15,924 bases of DNA from Archangiaceae bacterium (GCA_043750125.1 JAYVCD010000198.1:1-15924); one strand, 5' to 3'; positions 3 to 15,640 are shown, counted from the stretch's first letter. Numbers and translations are program-made. The notes: generated by a model not told the origin, from the sequence alone.

Positions 3-1688
3 ACGCCGATGCTGGCCTCGCGCTGGTTGAAGAAAAAGCTGCCGGGCAATCACAAGAAGCCGCTGCTCGAGCGGGTGGTCGACAATGGTTACCGACCGAT
101 CGAGCGCGTCTACACCCGGGCGTTGCGGTTCGCGATGGCCCACCGCTGGATCGTGGTGATCGCCTGCGTGCTGACGATGGTGTCGGTGTTTCCTCTGGCG
201 AAAGCGTCGCGGAAGGGCTTCCTGCCGATCGACGATCGGGCCCAATTCGAGGTGGTGGTGCGGCTGCCCGAGGGGCGCAGCGTCCCCGCGACCGAGCTCG
301 TCGGCGAACGGGTGGCGCGAATCATTCGGGCGATGCCGGAAGTCCTGGCGACGCTGGTAACGGTCGGTGACGACGAGCAGCGCACTCCGAACCAGGCGCG
401 AATCTACGTGAAGTTGATCAACCCTGAGCTGCGGACGGTCACCCAGAACGCGCTGAAGGACATCGTGCGGCAGAAGATCCTTCCGACGCTGCCCAAAGAT
501 CTGCGGGTTTCGATCGCCGACGTGAACGAGTTCGGTGGCGCCCAGTCGACCGCGCGCATTCAGTACATCCTCTCGGGCCCGGACCTTCGGGTGCTGACCG
601 GGGTGAACGGGAAGATCCTCGAAAAGATCAAAAAGATTCCTGGCGCGGTCGACGTGGACTCTTCGCTGATCGTCGGCAAGCCCGAGCTGAGCGTGTTCGT
701 CGATCGCCCCCGGGCGGCCGACCTCGGAGTCCAGGTGGCCGACGTGGCTTCGGCGCTGCAGTTGCTCGTCGGCGGGCAGAAGGTGTCGAGCTACGCCGAG
801 AATGGCGAGCAGTACGACATCCGGTTGCGCGCCGCTCCCGACTTCCGCACCAGCGAAGACCAGCTGCAGCTGATCACAGTGCCTTCGAAGAAGGTCGGGC
901 TGGTGTCGCTGGCCGAGGTGGTGAAGATCCGTCCGTCCGAAGGTCCGAGCAGCATTCTGCGCTACCAGCGCGAACGGCAGGTCACCTTCATGTTGAACGG
1001 AGGGCCGGGGTCCAGCGAAGGAGAGCTGGGCGACGCGGTGAAGCAGGTGCTGACCGATGAAAACCTTCCCAAGGGCTTTGCGGTCAAACCGCAGGGCCAG
1101 ACCAAGCTGATGCGCGAGACGGGAATCAGCTTCATCTTCGGGCTGCTCGCGTCGCTGCTGTTCATGTACCTCATCCTCGCGGCGCAGTTCGAATCCTGGC
1201 TGCACCCGATCACGATCTTGATTTCGCTGCCGCTGACCCTGCCCTTTGCGATCGCTTCGGTGATCCTCTTCGACCAGGCGCTCGACCTCTACAGCTTCCT
1301 CGGGATCTTCGTGCTGTTCGGGGTGGTGAAGAAGAACGCGATCTTGCAGATCGATCACACCAACAAGCTGCGCGAGGCGGGCATGCCGAGGGCCGAGGCG
1401 ATCATCCGGGGCAACGTCGACCGGCTGCGTCCGATCTTGATGACCACCTTCGCGTTCGTGGCCGGAATGATTCCGCTGGTGACTGCGCGCGGCATCGGCT
1501 CGGGCTTCAACCGCGCCACGGCCGGCGTGGTCGTCGGAGGTCAGGTGCTGTCGTTGGCGCTGACCCTGATGGCGGTGCCGGTCGCCTATTCGCTGCTCGA
1601 TGACTTGTCGTTGTTCCTGAAGCGAACGTGGGCGCGAGTCACCAGCAGCCCCGAGCCGATTTCTGTCGGGGAAGAGGTGGGGAAGTGA
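3..1688 (+). CDS. RND-family (AcrB/AcrD/AcrF, MdtBC-like) efflux permease, 5'-truncated by the window edge
   Basis: The frame is open from position 3 (TPMLASR, the end of the first TM half), so ATG at 9 is internal. The C-terminal half has RND motifs: YLILAAQFESWLHPITILISLPL, GVVKKNAILQID (TM10 proton-relay Lys) and RLRPILMTT (TM11). Stop TGA at 1686-1688. Confidence 0.95.
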   Translation, partial: TPMLASRWLKKKLPGNHKKPLLERVVDNGYRPIERVYTRALRFAMAHRWIVVIACVLTMVSVFPLAKASRKGFLPIDDRAQFEVVVRLPEGRSVPATELVGERVARIIRAMPEVLATLVTVGDDEQRTPNQARIYVKLINPELRTVTQNALKDIVRQKILPTLPKDLRVSIADVNEFGGAQSTARIQYILSGPDLRVLTGVNGKILEKIKKIPGAVDVDSSLIVGKPELSVFVDRPRAADLGVQVADVASALQLLVGGQKVSSYAENGEQYDIRLRAAPDFRTSEDQLQLITVPSKKVGLVSLAEVVKIRPSEGPSSILRYQRERQVTFMLNGGPGSSEGELGDAVKQVLTDENLPKGFAVKPQGQTKLMRETGISFIFGLLASLLFMYLILAAQFESWLHPITILISLPLTLPFAIASVILFDQALDLYSFLGIFVLFGVVKKNAILQIDHTNKLREAGMPRAEAIIRGNVDRLRPILMTTFAFVAGMIPLVTARGIGSGFNRATAGVVVGGQVLSLALTLMAVPVAYSLLDDLSLFLKRTWARVTSSPEPISVGEEVGK

Positions 1689-2962
1689 AGCGAGTCCTTT
1701 GGGTTCTGATGTTGGCAGGCTCGACCGTGGCGTCGGCGCAGAGCGTGACGTTGCAGCAACTGCTCGAGGCCGCGGACAAGAACAACCTCGATCGGCGGGT
1801 GTCGGTCGAGCAGACCCACCGGGCTGAGGCCGAGTTTCGGCAGGCCTGGGGTGGGCTGCTGCCTTCGATGAGCGCCAGCGCGTCGGCCACCTACAACCAG
1901 TACCCGACGGTGATCGAGCAGCCGGACGGAATGGGCGGAACCAAGCAGTTCGTGATCGTTCCGTCCGACCAGTACGACGCTGTGATTCGCTTTGATCTGC
2001 CCCTGCTCGACCCCTCGCGCTGGGCTCGCGCAGCAGCCAGCTCGGTGGGTCAGGAAAGCTCGGCCCAGCGCGACCTGCTCACCCGCGACCAGATTCGGCG
2101 GCAGGTGGTGTCGGCCTGGTACAACTATGCGGCGGCGCTCGCGGTGCGCGAGTCGGCGAAGAAGTCGTTGGTGTTGTCGGAAGCGCAGGCGAAGTTGCAG
2201 GAAATCCGACAGAACGCGGGCGCGGCCACCGAGCTCGAACGGCTGAGGGCCAACGCGGAACGAGCCCACAACGTTCAGCAGCTCGCGGACACTGAAAACC
2301 TCGTCGCGATCAGCCGGCGCTCGCTGCGGTCTTTGACCTTCGTGGATCCTGGAGAGCAGGTTCCTCTGCCTGAAGACGACCTTCGGGCCGAAGCTCCGCT
2401 GGAAGAGCTCGAGGCGCGGGTGGAAGAGCTGCCTGCGGTGCGAGCCTCGGACAAGGACGTGCTGTTCAATGAACGGCTGTTGACCGCCCAGCGGTTGGCC
2501 GCGCTGCCGGTGATCGGGGCGCAGTTCACCGAACGGGTCACCAACGCGACCGGCTTCTCGGGTCGAACCACCGGATTCAACGTCGGGCTGAACCTCTCCT
2601 GGCGGCTCGATGTGCCCACCTTCCAGGCGATGTCCGTGCAGCAGTCGGGCTTGTCGGTTGCCCAGCTTCAGGCCGAGCGTTCGCGGCTGAACGCGAAGGA
2701 CCAGATCCATTCGGACTGGCAGCGCCAGCGGGCTTCGCTCATCAAGATCGATGCGGCGCGGGCCCAGGTCGAAGCGGCGCAGCGCGCAGCCAGCGTGGCG
2801 CGCGATCGTTACGCCGTCGGAGTCTCGACCCAGGTCGATGTCATTCAGGCCGACCGCGATCTGTTCAGCGCCGAAGTCAGCCAGATCCAGGCGCGGACAG
2901 ATCTGGCCTCGGCCCGGACAGGCTTGCGGATCAGCGCCGGGCAGCCGCTGGCCGGCCCGTAA
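1685..2962 (+). CDS. TolC-family outer membrane efflux protein (about 425 aa)
   Basis: The GTG start overlaps the RND stop (GTGA) and follows GAGGTGG. Sec signal peptide MKRVLWVLMLAGSTVASA|Q. There are two OEP-like repeats with LLPSMSASAS/ALPVIGAQF strands, RQNAGAATELE and RYAVGVSTQVDVIQA, and the gene sits next to the RND pump. Confidence 0.9.
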   Translation: MKRVLWVLMLAGSTVASAQSVTLQQLLEAADKNNLDRRVSVEQTHRAEAEFRQAWGGLLPSMSASASATYNQYPTVIEQPDGMGGTKQFVIVPSDQYDAVIRFDLPLLDPSRWARAAASSVGQESSAQRDLLTRDQIRRQVVSAWYNYAAALAVRESAKKSLVLSEAQAKLQEIRQNAGAATELERLRANAERAHNVQQLADTENLVAISRRSLRSLTFVDPGEQVPLPEDDLRAEAPLEELEARVEELPAVRASDKDVLFNERLLTAQRLAALPVIGAQFTERVTNATGFSGRTTGFNVGLNLSWRLDVPTFQAMSVQQSGLSVAQLQAERSRLNAKDQIHSDWQRQRASLIKIDAARAQVEAAQRAASVARDRYAVGVSTQVDVIQADRDLFSAEVSQIQARTDLASARTGLRISAGQPLAGP

Positions 2963-3007
2963 CGTTCCATTCTGATGTGAAGCCGGGCCATGGCAGTCTG
3001 CGTCGCC

Positions 3008-5440
3008 ATGGCTCCGACCGACGTGAAGTTTCCCATCGCGCACAAGTTCGGCGGCAGCAGTGTCGCCAACGCCGAACGGATTCGTCGGGTCGCCGACATT
3101 CTGCTCGCGCGCACCGAACGGCAGGTGGTGGTCGTCTCTGCGATGCAGGGCGTCACCGATGCTTTGATCGCCCTGGTCCACAAAGCGTCGACCCGGGATT
3201 CCGGGTGGGAAAAAAATCTTCAGGCCCTGGGCGATCGCCACCGCGACACCGCGATCGAGCTGCTGGGCGAGCAGGCCCCGTCGATGGTCAGCCGCTTCGA
3301 AGCCGAGCTCGCCGGGCTGCGCGCCCTGCTGCAGGCGCAGACCCTGGTCGGCGCGGTCTCGAATGATCTGCTCGAGCTGATCAGTGGGCTGGGCGAGGTG
3401 TGGTCCTCGCTGATGCTCGAGGCGGCGCTTCGCCAGCGCGCGGTCTCGACCGATTGGCTCGATGCGCGCGAGGTGCTGGTGGTCGAGAAGACCGAACTGG
3501 GCGCGCTGGTCGATTGGGAACGTTCGGCCGCGGCGCTCGCGAAGTGGGGCGCGAGCCGGTCTGCCGAACGGGTGATCGTCACCGGCTTCATCGCGCGGGA
3601 CAGAGCAGGGCGGATCACGACCCTCGGCCGCAACGGCAGCGACTACTCGGGAGCCATCTTCGCAGCGCTGTTCGAGGCGAAGGAAATCCACATCTGGACC
3701 GATGTCGACGGAGTGCTCTCGGCAGATCCACGGCTGGTCCCCGAGGCGGTGCTGCTTTCAGAGATGTCCTATTCCGAAGCCTGCGAGCTGGCGTATTTCG
3801 GAGCGAAGGTCATTCACCCCCAGACGATGGCCCCGGCGATTAGCCGCAAGATTCCAATTTTCATTCGCAACACCTTCGCGCCGTCGAAGCCGGGCACGCG
3901 CATTGGCGCTTCGTCCGACGGGACCCAGCCGGTGAAGGGCGTCACCACCATCTCGGGCCTCGCGGTGCTCAACGTCGAAGGCGCTGGAATGATCGGCGTT
4001 CCCGGAACCGCCGAGCGGGCCTTCGGGGCGCTGAAGGCAGCGGGCGTCTCGGTGGTGATGATTTCCCAGGGCAGCTCGGAGCATTCCATCTGCTGCGTGG
4101 TCCAGGAAAAGGAAGCCGAGCGGGCTCGGGTGGCGCTGCTCGAGGCTTTTTCGCGCGAAGTCACGGCGGGTCACATTCAGAACGTGAGCGTGATCCCCAA
4201 AATCGCGGCGCTGGCGGTGGTGGGCGATGCGATGGCGGGCCGGCCCGGAGTCGCCGCGCAGCTGTTCACCTCGTTGGCCCGCGCCCGGGTGAACGTTCGA
4301 GCGATCGCCCAGGGCGCGTCCGAGCGGAACATCTCGGTTGCGATCTCGGCGGAAGACGCGACCCGAGCGCTGCGAGCGGTGCACGCGGGCTTCTACCTCT
4401 CTGCCCAGACGCTCTCGATCGGGATCATCGGCCCGGGCAATGTCGGCCAGGCTTTGCTCAAACAGATCGAGGGATCCCGGAAGAGGCTGCTGCAGACCAG
4501 CAACCTCGATCTGCGGGTGCGGGCGGTGGCGAAGAGTCGAACGATGAGCCTCGAGGACCTCGAAGTCCCGACCGACCTGCTGCGGTTCACCGACCACGTT
4601 CATGCCGAACATCTGCCCCACGCGGTGATCATCGATTGCAGCGCGAGCAACGCGGTGGCCGACCAATATGCCGGTTGGCTCGCCCGCGGAATCAACGTCA
4701 TCACCCCGAACAAGAATGCAGGCGCGGGCCCCTGGGCGCGCTACGCGGCGATTCGTGCCGCGGCGACGAAGGGCTCGGCGCACTTTCGATACGAGTCGAC
4801 CGTGGGCGCGGGTCTGCCCGTGATCTCGACCCTGCGAGATCTGGTCGACACCGGCGATGAAGTGTTCGCGGTCGAAGGCATCTTCTCGGGCACGTTGGCG
4901 TACCTGTTCAATCGCTTCGATGGGTCGATTCCTTTCTCCGAGCTGGTGCGAACCGCACGCGAGCTGGGGTACACCGAGCCCGATCCTCGAGACGATTTGT
5001 CGGGGCTCGATGTGGCGCGAAAGCTGGTGATCCTCGCGCGCGAGAACGGGGGGCAGACCCAGCTCGAAGCGGTCGAGCTCGAGAACCTGGTTCCGGCTGC
5101 GCTGCGCAGCATTCCCGCGGCAGAATTTCTCGAACGGCTGACCGAGCTCGACGGCCCGATGGAACAGCGGCTCGAGCGCGCCCGGAAAAACGGCACCGTC
5201 CTGCGCTACGTCGCCCGGCTCGAGACCGGAGCGAAGGCCCGGGTCGGGCTCACCGAGCTGCCCGCCGGACATGCGTTCGCGCACATTCGGCTCACCGACA
5301 ACGTGGTGCAGTTCACGACCCGCCGGTACCGCGACAACCCGCTGATCGTTCAGGGGCCGGGGGCCGGACCCGAAGTGACGGCGGCCGGAGTGTTCGCCGA
5401 TTTGCTCCGAATTGCCGCTGCCCTCGGGGCCCGGCTTTGA
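3008..5440 (+). CDS. thrA: Bifunctional aspartate kinase / homoserine dehydrogenase I
   Basis: Aspartokinase motifs HKFGGSS, VVSAM, TTLGRNGSDYS and WTDVDG. Two ACT repeats (MISQGSSEHSIC, IAQGASERNIS). Dehydrogenase motifs GPGNVG, TPNK, YESTVGAGLP, GYTEPDPRDDLSG and GPGAGPEVTA. The start is uncertain (ATG 2990 or ATG 3008; neither has a clear SD). Confidence 0.97.
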   Translation: MAPTDVKFPIAHKFGGSSVANAERIRRVADILLARTERQVVVVSAMQGVTDALIALVHKASTRDSGWEKNLQALGDRHRDTAIELLGEQAPSMVSRFEAELAGLRALLQAQTLVGAVSNDLLELISGLGEVWSSLMLEAALRQRAVSTDWLDAREVLVVEKTELGALVDWERSAAALAKWGASRSAERVIVTGFIARDRAGRITTLGRNGSDYSGAIFAALFEAKEIHIWTDVDGVLSADPRLVPEAVLLSEMSYSEACELAYFGAKVIHPQTMAPAISRKIPIFIRNTFAPSKPGTRIGASSDGTQPVKGVTTISGLAVLNVEGAGMIGVPGTAERAFGALKAAGVSVVMISQGSSEHSICCVVQEKEAERARVALLEAFSREVTAGHIQNVSVIPKIAALAVVGDAMAGRPGVAAQLFTSLARARVNVRAIAQGASERNISVAISAEDATRALRAVHAGFYLSAQTLSIGIIGPGNVGQALLKQIEGSRKRLLQTSNLDLRVRAVAKSRTMSLEDLEVPTDLLRFTDHVHAEHLPHAVIIDCSASNAVADQYAGWLARGINVITPNKNAGAGPWARYAAIRAAATKGSAHFRYESTVGAGLPVISTLRDLVDTGDEVFAVEGIFSGTLAYLFNRFDGSIPFSELVRTARELGYTEPDPRDDLSGLDVARKLVILARENGGQTQLEAVELENLVPAALRSIPAAEFLERLTELDGPMEQRLERARKNGTVLRYVARLETGAKARVGLTELPAGHAFAHIRLTDNVVQFTTRRYRDNPLIVQGPGAGPEVTAAGVFADLLRIAAALGARL

Positions 5441-5468
5441 GCTGTATGCGCGCAGGGAGGCGGCTGTG

Positions 5469-5537
5469 GCCTGTTTCAAAGCGCGACGAAGTGAGGGTTC
5501 CTCCCCACGCCCGGGGGCCAGGAGCCTGGTTCAAGGC
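5469..5537 (+). repeat. Imperfect 14-bp direct repeat pair, candidate regulator-binding sites
   Basis: GCCTGTTTCAAAGC (5469-5482) and GCCTGGTTCAAGGC (5524-5537) match at 12 of 14 positions, with starts 55 bp apart, in the thrA-cassette intergenic region. Confidence 0.5.
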
Positions 5538-5569
5538 ACCGAAATTAAAGGCGAAAACGGCATCGGGTC

Positions 5570-5586
5570 TTGGCGCATTTATTGGA
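5570..5586 (+). promoter_or_regulatory. Candidate sigma54 (-24/-12) promoter for the DUF1592/DUF1552 cassette
   Basis: TTGGCGCA-TTTA-TTGGA against the consensus YTGGCACG-N4-TTGCW. The spacing is exact, but the -12 element reads GG instead of GC. An AT-rich patch lies upstream (5541-5557) and the SD GGAGG (5613-5617) downstream. Confidence 0.4.
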
Positions 5587-5622
5587 TCCAACCGGCGATT
5601 GCCTTGCCCCCGGGAGGTCCAG

Positions 5623-7341
5623 ATGTCCTTCGTGCGCGCGACCCACTTTGCCTTTCTGGCGCTGGCCCTTGGAGGCTGTGACGGCTTCGTGGGTTCGCCC
5701 CCCGACAAGGGCGGCCCGACAGTTCCGAATCCGGTCGTGGTCCCCGACCCGGGGGTGGGGGTCATGCCGACCGATGCGTGCGCTGGCGTCACCGTGGCCG
5801 CTGGGCTCACGTCGCTTCGCCGGCTGAGCGTCGAAGAACAGCGCAACTCGTTTCGCGACATTCTCGCCGACGCGACCTTGACCCCGGCGCTGGCTCCGGC
5901 GAATGGGCCGGTGATCACCGAAGTCGAGGTGGACAAGTTGAACCTCGCCGTCGCCGCTCTGGTCGGCGCCAACAAGCACCTCACCTACCTTCCGTGCGAT
6001 CCCGCTGGGGCAGTCAACCTGGGGTGCGCCGACGCTTTCATCGCCAGCTTCGGCCAGGTCGCTTTTCGCCGTCCGCTGACCGACGCAGAGAAGCTGTCGC
6101 TGCGCAAAGACGTGTTCGATGCGATCCGGGCCCGGGCCGAGATCATTCCCGCGGTCAGCTTTCGCGAGGCGATCGACGCGGTGGCTCAGGCCATCTTGCA
6201 GGCGCCCCAGCTGCTCTACGTTCACGAGGACGGTGTCGCCGACGCCACCTTGCCCCCCCGAATCCGCCGCCTCACCGGGTACGAGCGCGCGACCCGACTG
6301 TCGTTTCTGCTGTGGAAGACGACTCCCGATTCGGTGCTGCTGGCCGCTGCCGGGGCTGGAACGCTCGACACTGCCGCCGGAATGCGGGTGCAGGCTGAAC
6401 GGCTGATCGCCAGCCCCCGGTCGAAAGGCACTGTGCGCGGGTTCGTTTCGTCCTGGCTCGAGCTGGACGGCAACTCGCACCAGCCTTCACTGGAAGCCAC
6501 GCCCAAGAGTCTGACCGCGTTTCCGTTCGACAGCCCCGCGCTTCGCGGCGCGATGCGCGAGGAGCTCGTCTCGTTGTTCGATCTGACCTTCTTCAGCCCC
6601 GGCGCCTCGTTCAAGACCCTGATGACGAGCAACAAGGCGTACGTGAACAAGTCGCTGGGCACCCTCTACGGAGTGGCCGCGCCCCCCGCGAACGACACCA
6701 CTTTTGCCTGGGTCGACCTCAATGCTCAGCAGCGCGCGGGGCTCTTTACCCGGGCCGGCTTCCTGTCGCTCTACGCGCCGCAGGACCAGAACTCGCCCAT
6801 TCGCCGCGGGGTGTTCCTCTTCAAAGAGGCGCTGTGCCGACCGCTGGGCGCGCCGCCGGCGAACGTGAACAACACCCCCTTCATGCTCACCGACAAGCCG
6901 CTCACCGTTCGGGAACAGGTGGAAGCGCGGACCGGAGCTGCGTCCTGCCAGGGCTGCCACCAGAGCATCAACCCCCTGGGCTTCACGCTGCAGGGCTACG
7001 ACGCCATCGGTCGCTACCAGCAAACCGAGAAGGGAATTCTCAACGCCATTCCATTCGAGCTGGCGATCAACAGCACCGCGACCCCGGTGGGCACAGACTT
7101 CGACAAGCCCGTCGCGGGGCCGATCGAGCTGTCCAACCAGCTGGCTCAAAGCGGCATGGCCCACGATTGTCTCGCCGCCACCTGGTTCGAACAGGCCAAC
7201 CCCAATGGGGTCACGGCGGCGGGCGGCGCCTGCAGCCTGCAGCGCCTCAAAGCGAAATTTCGCCAGACGGATGACATGAAGGATCTCTTGCTCACGCTTG
7301 CGACCGACGACAGCGCGCTGTTCTTCCAGGAGACTCCATGA
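5623..7341 (+). CDS. DUF1592/DUF1588/DUF1595/DUF1587-type (PSD/PSCyt3) lipoprotein with a single CxxCH motif (about 572 aa)
   Basis: SD GGAGG lies 5 nt before ATG 5623. Lipobox LGG|C19 is followed by a Pro-rich linker. Recognised blocks: LRRLSVEEQRNSFRDIL (DUF1587-like), CADAFIASFGQVAFRRPLT (DUF1595-like), LTGYERATRLSFLLWKTTPD (DUF1592-like), and SPIRRGVF..LC..PP plus CQGCH..INPLGF...YDAIGRY (DUF1588-like). Confidence 0.9.
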   Translation: MSFVRATHFAFLALALGGCDGFVGSPPDKGGPTVPNPVVVPDPGVGVMPTDACAGVTVAAGLTSLRRLSVEEQRNSFRDILADATLTPALAPANGPVITEVEVDKLNLAVAALVGANKHLTYLPCDPAGAVNLGCADAFIASFGQVAFRRPLTDAEKLSLRKDVFDAIRARAEIIPAVSFREAIDAVAQAILQAPQLLYVHEDGVADATLPPRIRRLTGYERATRLSFLLWKTTPDSVLLAAAGAGTLDTAAGMRVQAERLIASPRSKGTVRGFVSSWLELDGNSHQPSLEATPKSLTAFPFDSPALRGAMREELVSLFDLTFFSPGASFKTLMTSNKAYVNKSLGTLYGVAAPPANDTTFAWVDLNAQQRAGLFTRAGFLSLYAPQDQNSPIRRGVFLFKEALCRPLGAPPANVNNTPFMLTDKPLTVREQVEARTGAASCQGCHQSINPLGFTLQGYDAIGRYQQTEKGILNAIPFELAINSTATPVGTDFDKPVAGPIELSNQLAQSGMAHDCLAATWFEQANPNGVTAAGGACSLQRLKAKFRQTDDMKDLLLTLATDDSALFFQETP

Positions 7342-8834
7342 GCCGGCGATACCCACGCAGGTTGGTCTTGCAGGGCCTGGGCGGGCTGGCGATCGGGCTG
7401 CCGTTCCTCGAGTTCACGGGCCGCGCGTACGGCGCTCCGCCCGCGACTCCCAACCGGTTCATTACTTTCTTCGAGCACGGCGGCACGCTCACCAACTGCA
7501 CCGATGGCGTCTACGGCTACGCGGGCTTTACCGATGGCGTTTCGGAAATGCAGGGAATGGACGGCTGGCGTCCCACCAGCACTCCGGGCCAGCCGCTGGT
7601 GTTGGGAGCGATTCACAAGCCGCTCGCCGACGCCGGCCTCACCCCCGACGTAAACGTGCTGCGCGGCATCGACAACCACGCCGGCGACTTGCAGGGCGAC
7701 TACGGCAACGGCCACGGCATCTCGAACGTCACCATCCTCACCGCGGGAAAGGGCAAGCTCGCAGGCCAGAAGGACGACCTGTCGATCGCCTACAGTCCGT
7801 CGATCGATCAGGTGATCGGCGCCCGCTGGGGCCCGCCGGCCGGCGGACAAGCGGTCGTCAACCTGCTGATCGACGCGCACAACTACGGCTCGCCGTACTT
7901 CCGCGGGCCGAGCCAGCGCGCGTCGTCGTTCTCGAATCCACTCGACGCCTTCAACACCTTGCTGGCGGGGGTGACGACCGGCCCCGGTGGACCCAACCCG
8001 GCCGTGGTGCGCGCCCAATTAATTCGACGCAGCATTCTCGACGGCACCGGCAAGGGGCTCGAGCAGTACAAGAACCAGCTCACCTCACAGGACAAGCTGA
8101 CCGTGGAAGCGCACCTCGAGCACATCCGGGCGATCGAGCTGCGGCTGGCGGCGATCGTGCCCCCGCCCGCGCTCACCTGTTCCAAGCCCACGCTGGGGAC
8201 CTTCAACCCCAACAGCATTCCGAGCATTTCTCCGCTGATGGTGGACATCGGGTTGGCTGCGCTGCGGTGTGGGCGCACCCGGGTGCTGAACATCGAGATC
8301 GGCGACTTCCACATGACGTGGGATCCGACGGTTCTGCCGTTCGAAGTCGGTTACGACATCGGCCATTCGCTGCACCACATGGCGCGGGATCTCGGGACGA
8401 CGGGCTCATTGAACGTCCAGAACCCCGGCTGGAGAGGGCCGTGGCAGCAGGCGATGATCCGCAACCGCCAGTTCCGCGCAGGCCTGGTCGCCAAGTTGCT
8501 CAAGGGCCTGAAGGACACTCCCGAGACGGGCGGCAACATGCTCACCAACTCGCTGTTCATGTGGACCAGTGAGTTCAGCAACGGCTCGGTGCACAACGGC
8601 AGCGACATGCCGTTCTTGATCGCCGGTAAGGGCGGGAGCCCGACGATGCAGACCGGCCGGTACCTCAACTACAACACCAAGGCCGCGACCAACGACTTCA
8701 TCAACCAGTACTTGTCGAAGGCCACCACCAACAACCTCTACATCTCGCTGTTGAACGTGCTCGGGTTTACGGACACGACCTTCGGCGACATGGCGTACTC
8801 GAAAGTGCCCGGACCGCTCGCCGGCCTGGGCTGA
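7338..8834 (+). CDS. DUF1552 (HXXSHH-family) Tat-signal protein (498 aa)
   Basis: ATGA overlap with the upstream gene. N-terminus MSRRYPRRLVLQGLGGLAIGLPFLE (twin-Arg plus the family LPFLE). Family-like motifs SIDQVIG, RRSILD, DKLTVEAHLEHIRAIELRL, ALRCGRTRV, HSLHH and MLTNSLFMWTSEFSNGSVH...MPFLIAG. This is the usual partner of DUF1592 proteins. Confidence 0.9.
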   Translation: MSRRYPRRLVLQGLGGLAIGLPFLEFTGRAYGAPPATPNRFITFFEHGGTLTNCTDGVYGYAGFTDGVSEMQGMDGWRPTSTPGQPLVLGAIHKPLADAGLTPDVNVLRGIDNHAGDLQGDYGNGHGISNVTILTAGKGKLAGQKDDLSIAYSPSIDQVIGARWGPPAGGQAVVNLLIDAHNYGSPYFRGPSQRASSFSNPLDAFNTLLAGVTTGPGGPNPAVVRAQLIRRSILDGTGKGLEQYKNQLTSQDKLTVEAHLEHIRAIELRLAAIVPPPALTCSKPTLGTFNPNSIPSISPLMVDIGLAALRCGRTRVLNIEIGDFHMTWDPTVLPFEVGYDIGHSLHHMARDLGTTGSLNVQNPGWRGPWQQAMIRNRQFRAGLVAKLLKGLKDTPETGGNMLTNSLFMWTSEFSNGSVHNGSDMPFLIAGKGGSPTMQTGRYLNYNTKAATNDFINQYLSKATTNNLYISLLNVLGFTDTTFGDMAYSKVPGPLAGLG

Positions 8835-8857
8835 ATTCAGAACGCTTTTCAGGTTTT
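8825..8857 (+). terminator. Weak possible intrinsic terminator or hairpin after the cassette
   Basis: CTGAA (8831-8835) can pair with TTCAG (8848-8852), or CCTG (8825-8828) with CAGG (8850-8853), followed by TTTT. The stem is short and atypical. Confidence 0.2.
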
Positions 8858-8872
8858 CGGGGTCGCTTCGGC

Positions 8873-8878
8873 TACCGT
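8873..8878 (+). promoter_or_regulatory. Candidate -10 element (TACCGT) for leaderless thrB transcription
   Basis: A TANNNT hexamer ends 6 nt before the thrB ATG (8885). There is no SD-like purine run upstream and no convincing -35. Confidence 0.45.
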
Positions 8879-8884
8879 TGGCTG

Positions 8885-9829
8885 ATGTCCGCGTTCCCCA
8901 CCGCGACGGCGTTCGCTCCCGCGTCGATTGGCAATGTCGCCGTCGGCTTCGACATTCTTGGGCAGAGTCTGGCGGGCCCCGGCGATCGCGCGACGGTGCG
9001 GCTCACTTCCGACGGGCAGGTGCGGATTCTCGCCATCCGCGGGGTGGTCAAGAATCTTCCGCTCGATCCCCACCACAACACCGCCGGTCGCGCGCTGCTG
9101 GGACTGATTGCCTTGCGTCCCGGCATCGGCATCGGCTTCGAGGTCGAGCTCGACAAGGGCATTCCGCTTGGGTCGGGAATGGGAGGTTCGGCGGCCTCGG
9201 CCGTCGCCGCGCTGCTCGCCGCGAACGCGTTGCTCGAAGTCCCGCTGACGATCGACGCGTTGTACGAGCTCGCGATGGACGGAGAAGCCGCCGCGAGCGG
9301 AAGTCGCCATGGCGACAACGTGGCCCCAATGCTGCTGGGAGGGCTGGTGATCGCCCCCGCCGAAGGAATGCCGATTCGGATTCCGGTTCCCGAGAGCCTG
9401 TTTTGCACGCTGGTGCACCCGCACTTCGAGCTCGCCACCCGAACCGCCCGTGAAGCGCTGGCCGGCAGCTACGCGCTTCATGATTTCGTCAAACAGAGCG
9501 AAGCGCTGAGCCTGTTCCTCACCGGCTGTTTCACGAACGACCTTTCGCTGATTCGCCGGGGGCTGCGCGACACCCTGGTCGAGCCCCGACGGGCGGCCCT
9601 CATTCCGGGCTTCGCGGCCGTGAAGCAGGCGGCGCTCGACGCCAGAGCGCTCGGAGCCAGCATCTCGGGCGCAGGCCCCAGCGTGTTCGGGTGGTTCGAA
9701 AATCGGGGCGTGGCCGAGCAGGCGGGGAGCGCGATGTCGGAAGCCTTTGCGAAGGCCGGCCTGGCCTCGGACGTGTTCGTCTCTCCGGTGGCAGGCCCCG
9801 CGGCGAGGGTCGAATCATGCGATGCGTGA
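8885..9829 (+). CDS. thrB: Homoserine kinase (GHMP family)
   Basis: N-terminal APASIGNVAVGFDILG, GHMP loop KGIPLGSGMGGSAAS, HGDNVAP and ISGAGPSVF. It lies next to thrC. Confidence 0.97.
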   Translation: MSAFPTATAFAPASIGNVAVGFDILGQSLAGPGDRATVRLTSDGQVRILAIRGVVKNLPLDPHHNTAGRALLGLIALRPGIGIGFEVELDKGIPLGSGMGGSAASAVAALLAANALLEVPLTIDALYELAMDGEAAASGSRHGDNVAPMLLGGLVIAPAEGMPIRIPVPESLFCTLVHPHFELATRTAREALAGSYALHDFVKQSEALSLFLTGCFTNDLSLIRRGLRDTLVEPRRAALIPGFAAVKQAALDARALGASISGAGPSVFGWFENRGVAEQAGSAMSEAFAKAGLASDVFVSPVAGPAARVESCDA

Positions 9830-11049
9830 GCACCCGGACTCCCGGAATGGACGGCGTCGCACTGTCCGATGCGATGTCCCGGGGCCTGGCCCTGGACGGG
9901 GGGCTCTTCGTTCCCCAGACCCTTCCCGAAGTGGACCTTCTTCCGGGGCCGCTGGCGCAGATCGCCGCCGGAATTCTCTCCCCATACTTCGCGGACGAGC
10001 CGCTGGGGGCTCAGCTCGAGGAAATCTGCACCGCCGCTTTCAACTTCGAGGCGCCGCTGGTTCCGCTGGGGCCCGATTACCTGCTCGAGCTGTTTGCGGG
10101 TCCGACCGCGGCGTTCAAAGATTTTGGGGCGCGCTTCCTCGCCGAATGTCTCACCCGACTGGGCGCGCGGCAGACGATTCTGGTCGCCACTTCCGGAGAT
10201 ACAGGCGCCGCCGTCGCCGCTGCCTTCCACCGCCGGGCGGGAATCCGAATCGTGATCCTCTACCCGAAGGGGCGCGTCTCGGCGCGACAGGAACACCAGC
10301 TCGGAGCGTTCGGCGACAACGTCCACGCCTTCCGCGTCAACGGCACCTTCGACGACTGCCAACGCATGGTGAAGGCTGCTCTCGCCGATGCCCCGCTTCG
10401 CAACACCCTTCAGCTCGGCAGCGCGAACAGCATCAGCCTGGGCCGCCTTCTTCCCCAGATGGCCTATTTTGCCCACGCGGCGCTGCAGGTGCCGGGGGTG
10501 AACATCGTCGTCCCGACCGGAAATCTCGGCAACGCGCTGGCCTGTTTGATGGCGAAGAAGATGGGCCTGCCGATTGGCCGAATCGTCCTCGCCACCAACG
10601 CCAACCGCGTGCTGGCGGACTTCGTCAAGTCGGGCACCTACCAGGCGCGAACGTCGATCGTGACGTTGGCAAACGCGATGGACGTGGGCGCTCCAAGCAA
10701 CCTCGAGCGGCTGCGCTTCTGGAACTTCAAGCCTGAAGCCGACTGGGTCGACGATGAGACGATTCGTTCCACCATTCGCCGAACCTTCGAGCAGTTCCAG
10801 CAGATGATTTGCCCCCATACCGCTTGTGGGGTCGAGGTCCTGCGGCGGCTGCGGGCCGACAGCGCCAGCGGTCCGTGGATTGTGGCTGCCACCGCTCACC
10901 CGGCCAAGTTCGAGACGATCGTCGAGCCCCTGGTCGGTCGAACAGTTCCGGTGCCGCCGCCGCTGCTGCAGCTGCTCACCCGGCCGTCCAGCGCCGAGCC
11001 CCTGGCCCCCTCCGATTCGGCCCTGATCGCCCGCCTCGCCCGCTTGTAG
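9817..11049 (+). CDS. thrC: Threonine synthase (PLP-dependent, E. coli-like class; about 410 aa)
   Basis: The start MRCVSTR at ATG 9817 overlaps the thrB end by 13 nt. Motifs GLALDGGLFVP, GPTAAFKDFG (PLP Lys at 10117-10119), ATSGDTGAA, GTFDDCQ, SANSISLGR, VPTGNLGN and TAHPAKF. Confidence 0.97.
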   Translation: MRCVSTRTPGMDGVALSDAMSRGLALDGGLFVPQTLPEVDLLPGPLAQIAAGILSPYFADEPLGAQLEEICTAAFNFEAPLVPLGPDYLLELFAGPTAAFKDFGARFLAECLTRLGARQTILVATSGDTGAAVAAAFHRRAGIRIVILYPKGRVSARQEHQLGAFGDNVHAFRVNGTFDDCQRMVKAALADAPLRNTLQLGSANSISLGRLLPQMAYFAHAALQVPGVNIVVPTGNLGNALACLMAKKMGLPIGRIVLATNANRVLADFVKSGTYQARTSIVTLANAMDVGAPSNLERLRFWNFKPEADWVDDETIRSTIRRTFEQFQQMICPHTACGVEVLRRLRADSASGPWIVAATAHPAKFETIVEPLVGRTVPVPPPLLQLLTRPSSAEPLAPSDSALIARLARL

Positions 11050-11060
11050 AACCGACACGA

Positions 11061-11089
11061 TTGCCGAGCCTGACGCGGTGCATTATCTA
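11061..11089 (+). promoter_or_regulatory. Candidate sigma70-type promoter for gltBD
   Basis: TTGCCG (11061-11066), a 17-nt spacer and TATCTA (11084-11089) lie in the short thrC-gltB gap. The -10 lacks the final T. Confidence 0.3.
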
Positions 11090-11098
11090 GGGGCTCCC

Positions 11099-15640
<4,542 letters not shown>

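Follow-up and report, generated by a model that had tools for sequence, protein, structure and literature searches.

A conserved pair of genes for a heme-motif lipoprotein and a DUF1552 protein in an Archangiaceae bacterium: candidate subunits of one periplasmic enzyme

Domains of the PSCyt and PSD families, which are said to owe their names to Studholme et al. 2004, occur in one of two adjacent genes, here called A and B, at positions 5623-8834 of a 15,924-nucleotide stretch of DNA from an Archangiaceae bacterium (GCA_043750125.1 JAYVCD010000198.1:1-15924). This whole stretch is the window, and positions are counted from its first letter. The product of gene A is a lipoprotein that combines the domains PSD5, PSD4, and PSCyt3 with a single CxxCH motif, and gene B encodes a protein of the HXXSHH/DUF1552 family with a twin-arginine signal. 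According to Text S1 of He et al. 2017 (PMC5615132), PSCyt3 genes usually adjoin DUF1552 genes, and a passage of the same paper reports that many copies in the Planctomycetota-Verrucomicrobiota-Chlamydiota (PVC) bacteria carry carbohydrate-binding or protein-interaction domains. For a related pair, PSCyt2/PSD1 with DUF1501, the section concerned of Kamneva et al. 2012 (PMC3542564) suggested electron transport together with a cofactor enzyme exported by the twin-arginine translocation (Tat) route. In the relevant excerpts, a DUF1552 protein is placed among the stress-regulated genes of Rhodopirellula (Wecker et al. 2009) and A-type domains are listed among domains associated with anaerobic respiration (Kampers et al. 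2021). In Cellvibrio japonicus, the passages of Branch et al. 2021 (PMC8981238) on Cbp2D describe DUF1587/PSD3 and a c-type cytochrome domain in one polypeptide, and the cytochrome domain is characterized there as an electron donor to copper lytic polysaccharide monooxygenases (LPMOs). No functional study of these families was found among open-licence papers and preprints, a search that may miss work in subscription journals.

A preliminary description of the window, made from the sequence alone, had presented the pair as its best candidate for an undescribed system. Since the pairing already appears in the part of He et al. 2017 cited above, and the idea of electron transport with a Tat-exported enzyme in that of Kamneva et al. 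2012 for the sister pair, the system is better called uncharacterized. Our reading, to which we give a probability of roughly 55%, is that A and B would be two subunits of one periplasmic enzyme, a heme-c subunit A and a metal-binding subunit B of sulfatase-like fold.

Gene A (5623-7341, on the plus strand like all features below unless stated otherwise) encodes 572 aa counted from its ATG, and gene B (7338-8834) encodes 498 aa. The two genes were confirmed to be joined by an ATGA overlap at 7338-7341, formed by the ATG of B (7338-7340) and the TGA of A (7339-7341). The ATG start of A was preferred to a longer alternative frame with a TTG start at 5437 because it is preceded, at a distance of 5 nt, by a sequence that reads as a Shine-Dalgarno-like GGGAGG (5612-5617), yields a signal peptide, and gives a length agreeing with the homologues. 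The start of B likewise has a Shine-Dalgarno-like AGGAG (7328-7332) 5 nt upstream. The Pfam search that the preliminary description had called for placed DUF1592, DUF1588, and DUF1552 above the gathering score, as had been assigned, and added DUF1595. In A, PSD5/DUF1595 (residues 135-202; 6025-6228) scored 44.6 bits against a cut-off of 34.2, PSD4/DUF1592 (residues 217-351; 6271-6675) 106.7 bits against 23.3, and PSCyt3/DUF1588 (residues 371-469; 6733-7029) 94 bits against 27. In B, HXXSHH/DUF1552 (PF07586) covered residues 74-351 with 101.2 bits against 30, and all 53 aligned B homologues matched the same family. PSD2 and PSD3 were undetected in window A and detected in 44 and 22, respectively, of 46 A homologues (PSD3 weakly). 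Both proteins have hundreds of full-length homologues (233 for A at E<=1e-5), and NCBIfam holds no model for either. The combination of PSCyt3 (PF07627), PSD4 (PF07631), and PSD5 in A corresponds to group III of He et al. 2017, in which PSCyt3 accompanies PSD4 and PSD2, PSD3, and PSD5 are frequent additions. Both the Pfam families of the two genes and their adjacency agree with the PSCyt3/PSD and DUF1552 pairs of Planctomycetota and Verrucomicrobiota, and the window pair is of the same type.

The conservation of the pair was evaluated across related loci, one genome per species, collected by two peptide patterns specific to the Myxococcota-type subfamily. The resulting 80 loci come nearly all from Myxococcota metagenome-assembled genomes and isolates, including Sorangium and Paraliomyxa, and form a sample biased to close relatives. 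At 77 of the 80 loci, B is immediately preceded by an A homologue on its own strand, in line with the recurring adjacent pair named in the preliminary description; as the patterns are subfamily-specific, this figure holds for the Myxococcota-type subfamily only. The exceptions include two N-terminally truncated B remnants without a signal peptide (L056, 1966-3156; L062, 5956-6957). Among the 77 junctions, 29 show the 4-base overlap of the window and 7 overlap by 1 base, while gaps of +2 to +10 occur in 25 and gaps of 19-90 in 4; in the remaining 12 the automatic start choice was clearly wrong. Moreover, the distance matrices of A and B are closely correlated (76 pairs, r=0.93, a value to which shared species history contributes), with 0 of 999 Mantel permutations as high. 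More tellingly, comparison of paralogues within single genomes gave an A identity close to the B identity in 12 of 12 cases (e.g. 0.65/0.67, 0.45/0.44, and 0.76/0.80), indicating that the pairs duplicated and diverged as units.

The docking of the two proteins as a heterodimer, which had been proposed, was then supported by complex prediction. With the mature chains (A 47-572 and B 33-498) and self-made unpaired alignments, the interaction prediction score from aligned errors (ipSAE) was 0.78 (0.77, 0.80, and 0.78 in three runs), and the best of three controls scored 0.00. In a calibration, 116 of 157 solved complexes attained the 0.78 mark, as did 2 of 215 mismatched pairs, counts that are only roughly valid here because self-made alignments were used. 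The A-B runs share at least 83% of their contacts, with a predicted local distance difference test (pLDDT) value of at least 85 for the partner. Since no similar complex has been solved, the score is unlikely to stem from a memorized structure. On the A side, the predicted interface comprises residues 64-67, 92-111, and 155-203, which belong to the PSD3-like and PSD5 regions, together with 285-296 and 387; it takes in the invariant E156 and Q193, and residues 292-294 and 296 flank the invariant K295. On the B side, it comprises hairpin residues 225-266 and, at the active-site rim, H126, 181-185, and 336-341, the last adjoining H343. The N-terminal docking region of A, in PSD3-like position (residues 62-111; 5806-5955), is predicted to contact the B hairpin, and PSD5 provides the chief predicted contact surface for B. 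The N-terminal domains of A are thus predicted to dock on the helical hairpin and the active-site rim of B.

Protein A begins with a signal peptide ending in the lipobox L-G-G-C19 (5623-5679). The lipobox consensus is [LVI][ASTVI][GAS]C, so that the Gly at -2 in A is less usual; C19 is conserved in 93% of the 46 homologues used for A, which are 39-79% identical to window A. A Pro/Gly-rich tether follows (residues 20-52; 5680-5778; 8 Pro and 6 Gly in 33 residues), and in the AlphaFold2 (AF2) model the pLDDT of residues 15-46 falls below 50, which points to a disordered tether. The lipobox, the Pro-rich tether, the nine Cys, and the single CQGCH listed in the preliminary description are all present. 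The Cys occupy positions 19, 53, 125, 135, 405, 442, 445, 516, and 537, and the CQGCH (residues 442-446; 6946-6960), the only CxxCH of the protein, stands at the N-terminus of helix 440-454 as a candidate covalent heme-c attachment site. All 46 sequences share C442, C445, and H446, along with C125, C135, K295, Y349, and four Arg in or just after PSCyt3, the domain itself containing the invariant R371, R377, R395, and R430. PSCyt3 is among the best conserved stretches of A in 20-residue windows. The word scaffold, applied to A beforehand, undersells the protein, whose PSCyt3 heme-motif region is better conserved than its predicted docking surface. A CxxCH in an exported protein is one mark of a c-type cytochrome, and A combines its CQGCH with a lipoprotein signal peptide of the Sec type, the route taken by apo-cytochromes c. 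Candidates for a sixth ligand are M311 (87%), K295 (100%), and Y349 (100%). As no His or Met besides H446 is invariant, the sixth ligand of a bound heme would be unusual or absent, a pattern that may be commoner among catalytic or ligand-binding hemes than among simple electron shuttles. The AF2 model of A (pLDDT 90.4; predicted template modeling score, pTM, 0.86) is nearly all helical past the disordered N-terminal tether and is without a solved structural counterpart. An Atlas search with A returned nothing beyond its own family, and Paired_CXXCH_1 was matched by 1 of the 46 homologues (E=0.084).

Protein B carries a putative twin-arginine signal peptide (residues 1-32; 7338-7433) with the two Arg at residues 7-8 (7356-7361). 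R7 and R8 are present in 53 of 53 sequences and in 146 of 151 in a wider set (window B with the 150 best representatives, at a median identity of 29% to the former), the remaining five being gaps; a hydrophobic stretch follows, and related loci read S/G-R-R-x-F-L-R/K, as in SRRxFLRG or GRRAFLRG, in agreement with the Tat consensus. Together with the conservation of C19 in A, this supports the two export routes that had been proposed, Sec with lipidation for A and Tat for B, as far as motifs can. As a side observation, L21, P22, L24, and E25 within residues 21-25 (7398-7412) of the presumed Tat signal peptide are near invariant (P22 in 147 of 151), which is unusually strong for a cleaved region; the N-terminal helix of B may be retained as an anchor or may have a second role.

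The AF2 model of B (pLDDT 86.3, pTM 0.82) displays an alpha/beta fold with an inserted helical hairpin (residues 221-271, helices 221-247 and 250-271; 7998-8150), the predicted docking element for A. The Foldseek comparison of B with the PDB, which had been suggested as a check of a sulfatase/alkaline-phosphatase-like fold, gave 50 matches at E<=1e-3, the best being choline sulfatase 6fny (E=9.2e-6, probability 1.00), and among the matches listed all are sulfatases, sulfamidases, or phosphonate monoester hydrolases. This result indicated that the core of the B model is an alkaline-phosphatase-superfamily fold. The three His motifs singled out beforehand (GNGHG, HSLHH, and GSVH) proved to contain the invariant His of the family, namely H126 (7713-7715), at a helix N-terminus and on the predicted interface, H343, and H419 (8592-8594), after strand 405-411; each is found in 151 of 151 sequences. 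HSLHH (residues 343-347; 8364-8378) forms an HxxxH at a helix N-terminus whose His are candidate metal ligands, H347 being conserved in 148 of 151; at position 346, where the window has His, the commonest residue of the family is Ser (84 of 151). S155-I-D157 (7800-7808) provides a candidate nucleophile and acidic residue, with Ser in 145 and Thr in 6 of 151 sequences at position 155 and D157 in 150 of 151. In addition, the position of E412 holds Glu or Asp in 135 of 151, C281 is conserved in 146, and C311 in 148. In the AF2 model, each candidate catalytic residue directly follows a beta-strand or stands at the N-terminal end of a helix, and the active sites of the alkaline-phosphatase fold class lie at such places. 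We take the combination of an H-x-x-x-H, a later His, and a Ser/Thr hydroxyl to recall the metal/nucleophile layout of alkaline phosphatase and nucleotide pyrophosphatase/phosphodiesterase (NPP), and from conservation, secondary structure, and these known motifs, S/T155, the HxxxH, and H419 may correspond to the canonical nucleophile and metal sites.

Alongside the computed families, signal motifs, residue conservation, fold class of B, tight pairing, co-divergence, and model-predicted interface, a scheme can be drawn in which heme and metal binding, the ligand residues, the substrate class, and electron transfer are all putative. A would be exported unfolded by Sec, lipidated at C19, and hang from the membrane by a disordered tether of about 30 residues, carrying one covalent heme c at C442-x-x-C445-H446 within a large all-helical fold. 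B would be exported by Tat in the folded state, with a sulfatase-like core that is not that of a formylglycine sulfatase and a catalytic crevice formed from H126, S/T155, D157, H343-x-x-x-H347, E412, and H419. In the periplasm, the PSD3-like and PSD5 domains of A would clamp the hairpin of B and rest against its active-site rim, so that the substrate pocket would probably be composite. As a guess at the chemistry, B may act by means of its metal on an anionic (phospho- or sulfo-) ester, cleaving or transferring the group, and the heme pocket of A, where four Arg are invariant but no distal His or Met is, may contribute a coupled redox or ligand-sensing step.

Several observations weigh against this scheme, and the alternatives to it are best considered together with them. 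Concerning the heme, Foldseek of A against the PDB gave no match at E<=1e-3 (best E=0.39, template modeling score, TM, about 0.1), neither a cytochrome-c fold match in the PDB nor a Pfam cytochrome family was found for window A, and among the 46 homologues no distal His or Met is invariant, M311 reaching only 87%. Searches of PDB sequences with A and B, as single sequences and as profiles, likewise gave no meaningful match. It is conceivable, if rather unlikely in our estimate, that in A the CxxCH binds a metal or serves as a thiol-disulfide motif, A itself being a non-redox lid, anchor, or substrate-binding subunit: the lack of a cytochrome-c fold or family match and of a conserved sixth ligand agrees with this, the invariant C125/C135 and the conserved C516/C537 (87%/96%) suggest a disulfide-rich periplasmic protein, and weak matches to Rieske_2 and Fer2_BFD occur in 7 and 4 of the 46 A homologues. 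However, the His of the CxxCH is as invariant as both Cys, which is the signature of heme-c attachment and not of a CxxC redox pair, Sec export suits periplasmic heme ligation, and the name that the Pfam curators gave the domain stands for planctomycete cytochrome, as a passage of He et al. 2017 (PMC5615132) records. Concerning the complex, one locus (L028, 5968-7431) holds a full-length B with unrelated upstream genes and no A-type gene nearby. A search for fused or longer forms of B revealed no A-B fusion, a negative of little weight given the nature of that search. Furthermore, the conservation of the predicted interface is not raised, being 0.599 against 0.642 for the rest of A (p=0.17) and 0.522 against 0.511 for the rest of B (p=0.64), values in which burial is not controlled for. 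The unraised interface conservation, the lone B of L028, and the fact that the complex score is the model's own confidence obtained from unpaired alignments would also fit two proteins of one pathway that form no stable complex, their adjacency and overlap reflecting co-expression only. We consider this improbable, as it is opposed by the gap between 0.78 and the 0.00 of all three controls, by the agreement of the runs, by the conserved stop/start overlaps, and by the near-equal divergence of A and B in same-genome paralogous pairs.

Concerning B, the window protein reads P-R-R-L-V-L-Q at its twin Arg and has no Pfam TAT_signal match, which 7 of 53 homologues have at E<=1. At position 403 (8544-8546) it has Thr, where Asp is found in 141 of the 151 sequences and the window is the sole Thr; T403 is common only to its two closest relatives (P0003 and P0004, 95% and 84% identical) and is therefore a lineage trait and not a sequencing error. 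The position after strand 1, which we take to be that of a metal-binding Asp in alkaline-phosphatase enzymes, varies among B sequences (Thr, Ser, His, or Glu at residue 46; Pro at residue 47 in 75 of 151), and the structural likeness is limited to the fold core (TM 0.21-0.37, root-mean-square deviation above 10 A). The fact that its best structural matches are sulfatases could make B an ordinary type I (formylglycine) sulfatase, a reading so improbable as to be effectively refuted: the C/S-x-P-x-R formylglycine motif is absent from B, Pfam Sulfatase (PF00884) is matched at E<=1 by neither window B nor any of 53 homologues, and sequence comparison with PDB sulfatases gave no match, in addition to the low TM values. 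Because of the missing motif and family match, B is not taken for a formylglycine sulfatase. A further alternative, possible in our view and on the doubtful side of even, is that the His-rich site of B (H126, H343, H347, and H419) binds a redox Fe or Cu and that the pair is an oxidase, oxygenase, or reductase and not a hydrolase; the metal would be loaded in the cytoplasm before Tat export, and the heme c of A would exchange electrons with it. To our knowledge, no redox enzyme of the alkaline-phosphatase superfamily has been characterized, which speaks against this. The presence of a partner with an invariant CxxCH beside B at 77 of 80 loci, the His-rich ligand set without a strand-1 Asp, and a MauG-like di-heme peroxidase gene upstream at 3 of 80 loci would fit such an enzyme. 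Tat export is typical of cofactor-loaded enzymes, as argued for DUF1501 in the section concerned of Kamneva et al. 2012, and Cbp2D joins DUF1587/PSD3 with a cytochrome domain donating electrons to copper LPMOs, according to the passages cited above (PMC8981238). On the other hand, the Ser/Thr alternation at 155 and D157 resemble a nucleophile and not a redox ligand, Pfam detected no redox cofactor family in B, and the CxxCH is outside the confidently placed interface. This last point tells equally on the heterodimeric heme and metal enzyme that we prefer, as it leaves a short electron path from the heme to B unsupported. A broader form of the redox idea, which we hold to be speculative and somewhat unlikely, is a new periplasmic enzyme class in which a mono-heme subunit of unseen fold would be wired to an alkaline-phosphatase-fold subunit with a redox His-rich metal site, which might, for example, oxidize organic phosphorus or sulfur esters or cleave them oxidatively.

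The flanking genes of the window, assigned by family match, all lie on the plus strand. They encode an RND permease (resistance-nodulation-division; 3-1688), an outer-membrane efflux protein (1628-2962), the bifunctional aspartate kinase / homoserine dehydrogenase I thrA (2990-5440), thrB (8885-9829), thrC (frame 9691-11049), gltB (11078-15640), and the beginning only of gltD (from 15646). The A-B pair is thus placed within a thrA-thrB-thrC cluster (2990-11049) that keeps one strand throughout, and co-transcription of A and B with the thr genes is possible. The pair has thr genes as neighbours at 0 of the 80 loci compared. No direct or inverted repeats bracketing the pair as a mark of insertion were found in the window, and the G+C content is level across the pair, with no shift marking insertion. 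An Rfam scan of the window gave no RNA family, a consensus scan found no sigma-70-like promoter for the pair, and terminator-like sites are at chance level (3 found, 3.0 expected). A sigma-54-like site at 5571-5586, 37 nt upstream of the start of A, was rejected, as it departs from the consensus at two positions, the -12 GC among them, and 172 of 200 shuffles yielded no fewer matches; it is mentioned since FHA (forkhead-associated)-sigma-54 activators and Ser/Thr kinases flank the pair at some related loci. Three long minus-strand open reading frames (ORFs) without family match, at 1586-3691 (701 aa), 8849-9481 (210 aa), and 9478-11058 (526 aa), are oriented antisense to genes for efflux and to thrA, thrB, and thrC; in a genome of high G+C content, they are probably spurious.

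When 653 greedy non-overlapping ORFs from the 80 loci were clustered, no universal third gene was found next to the pair. Ser/Thr kinases lie near it at 17 of 80 loci and FHA-sigma-54 activators at 8 of 80, neither being present in the window; both are very abundant in Myxococcota. At 10 of 80 loci (L018, L023, L042, L048-L051, L053, L057, and L060), the gene right after B, on the strand of the pair, encodes a protein of about 500 aa that matches the Cys-rich DUF4215 repeat only below threshold; the window lacks this gene. The product of the MauG-like gene mentioned above resembles di-heme cytochrome c peroxidases/MauG and has additional cytochrome c domains; the gene adjoins the pair at L023 (2256-4193), L025 (2283-4208), and L043 (406-2787), again with no counterpart in the window; in those three genomes, the protein is a possible redox partner.

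As a single locus, the window pair is one more member of an already noted family. New here are the fold assignment of B, the finding that the model of A is without a solved counterpart, the list of candidate catalytic residues, the strongly scored predicted interface placing A at the active-site rim of B, the divergence of A and B as a unit, and the unusual location of the pair within a cluster of threonine genes. An exhaustive profile search showed how large the DUF1552 family is, with 25,577 clusters (50% identity) at E<=1e-3 and 6,895 at E<=1e-30; the function of the family is still described as unknown in the literature searched. The compact two-gene form of the Myxococcota offers a tractable route to that function: among cultured strains, Sorangium cellulosum So ce56 (L070) and Paraliomyxa miuraensis (L036) have homologous pairs, and Sandaracinus amylolyticus has a B homologue (P0067). 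If true, the broader redox form set out above would extend the alkaline-phosphatase superfamily beyond group transfer and assign a function to a family with over 25,000 sequence clusters, as well as, by analogy, to its sister module with DUF1501.

Compared with the PVC pairs, the Myxococcota form is minimal, without the carbohydrate-binding or protein-interaction domains, and the window pair differs further in that A is a lipoprotein with no detected PSD2 or PSD3 and B has T403 in place of the family Asp. With Cbp2D, the likeness extends to PSD3, which also matches 22 of the 46 A homologues weakly; the differences are its heme domain X183, the absence of a PSD3 match in window A, and a partner gene, as the passages of that paper on Cbp2D mention no DUF1552 protein. 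The core alpha/beta fold of B is common to type I sulfatases and phosphonate monoester hydrolases (6fny, 9fo1, and 4upk), and B has conserved polar residues at strand ends and helix N-termini as in the alkaline-phosphatase superfamily at large. In contrast to the sulfatases, B has neither the formylglycine motif nor sequence-level similarity, its conserved set is His-rich, and it has the extra hairpin 221-271 for the predicted docking of A, a putative Tat export signal, and a heme-motif partner.

SoxB is a Tat-exported periplasmic metallohydrolase that works beside the heme-c protein SoxAX in one pathway, and PhoD and PhoX are Tat-exported phosphatases. These systems share with B, by analogy only, the concept of a folded, metal-loaded hydrolase exported via Tat; their folds and families are unrelated to B, and no carrier protein is encoded here. 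The PSCyt1/PSCyt2/PSD1 and DUF1501 module differs from the window pair in the Pfam families of both genes and follows a like logic, with a CxxCH multi-domain protein beside a twin-arginine protein and membrane electron transport proposed for it in the section concerned of Kamneva et al. 2012. DUF1501 is also the nearest other family of B, through weak Pfam matches in 2 of 53 homologues (best E=0.005) and an Atlas score of 0.84 that serves as a lead only.

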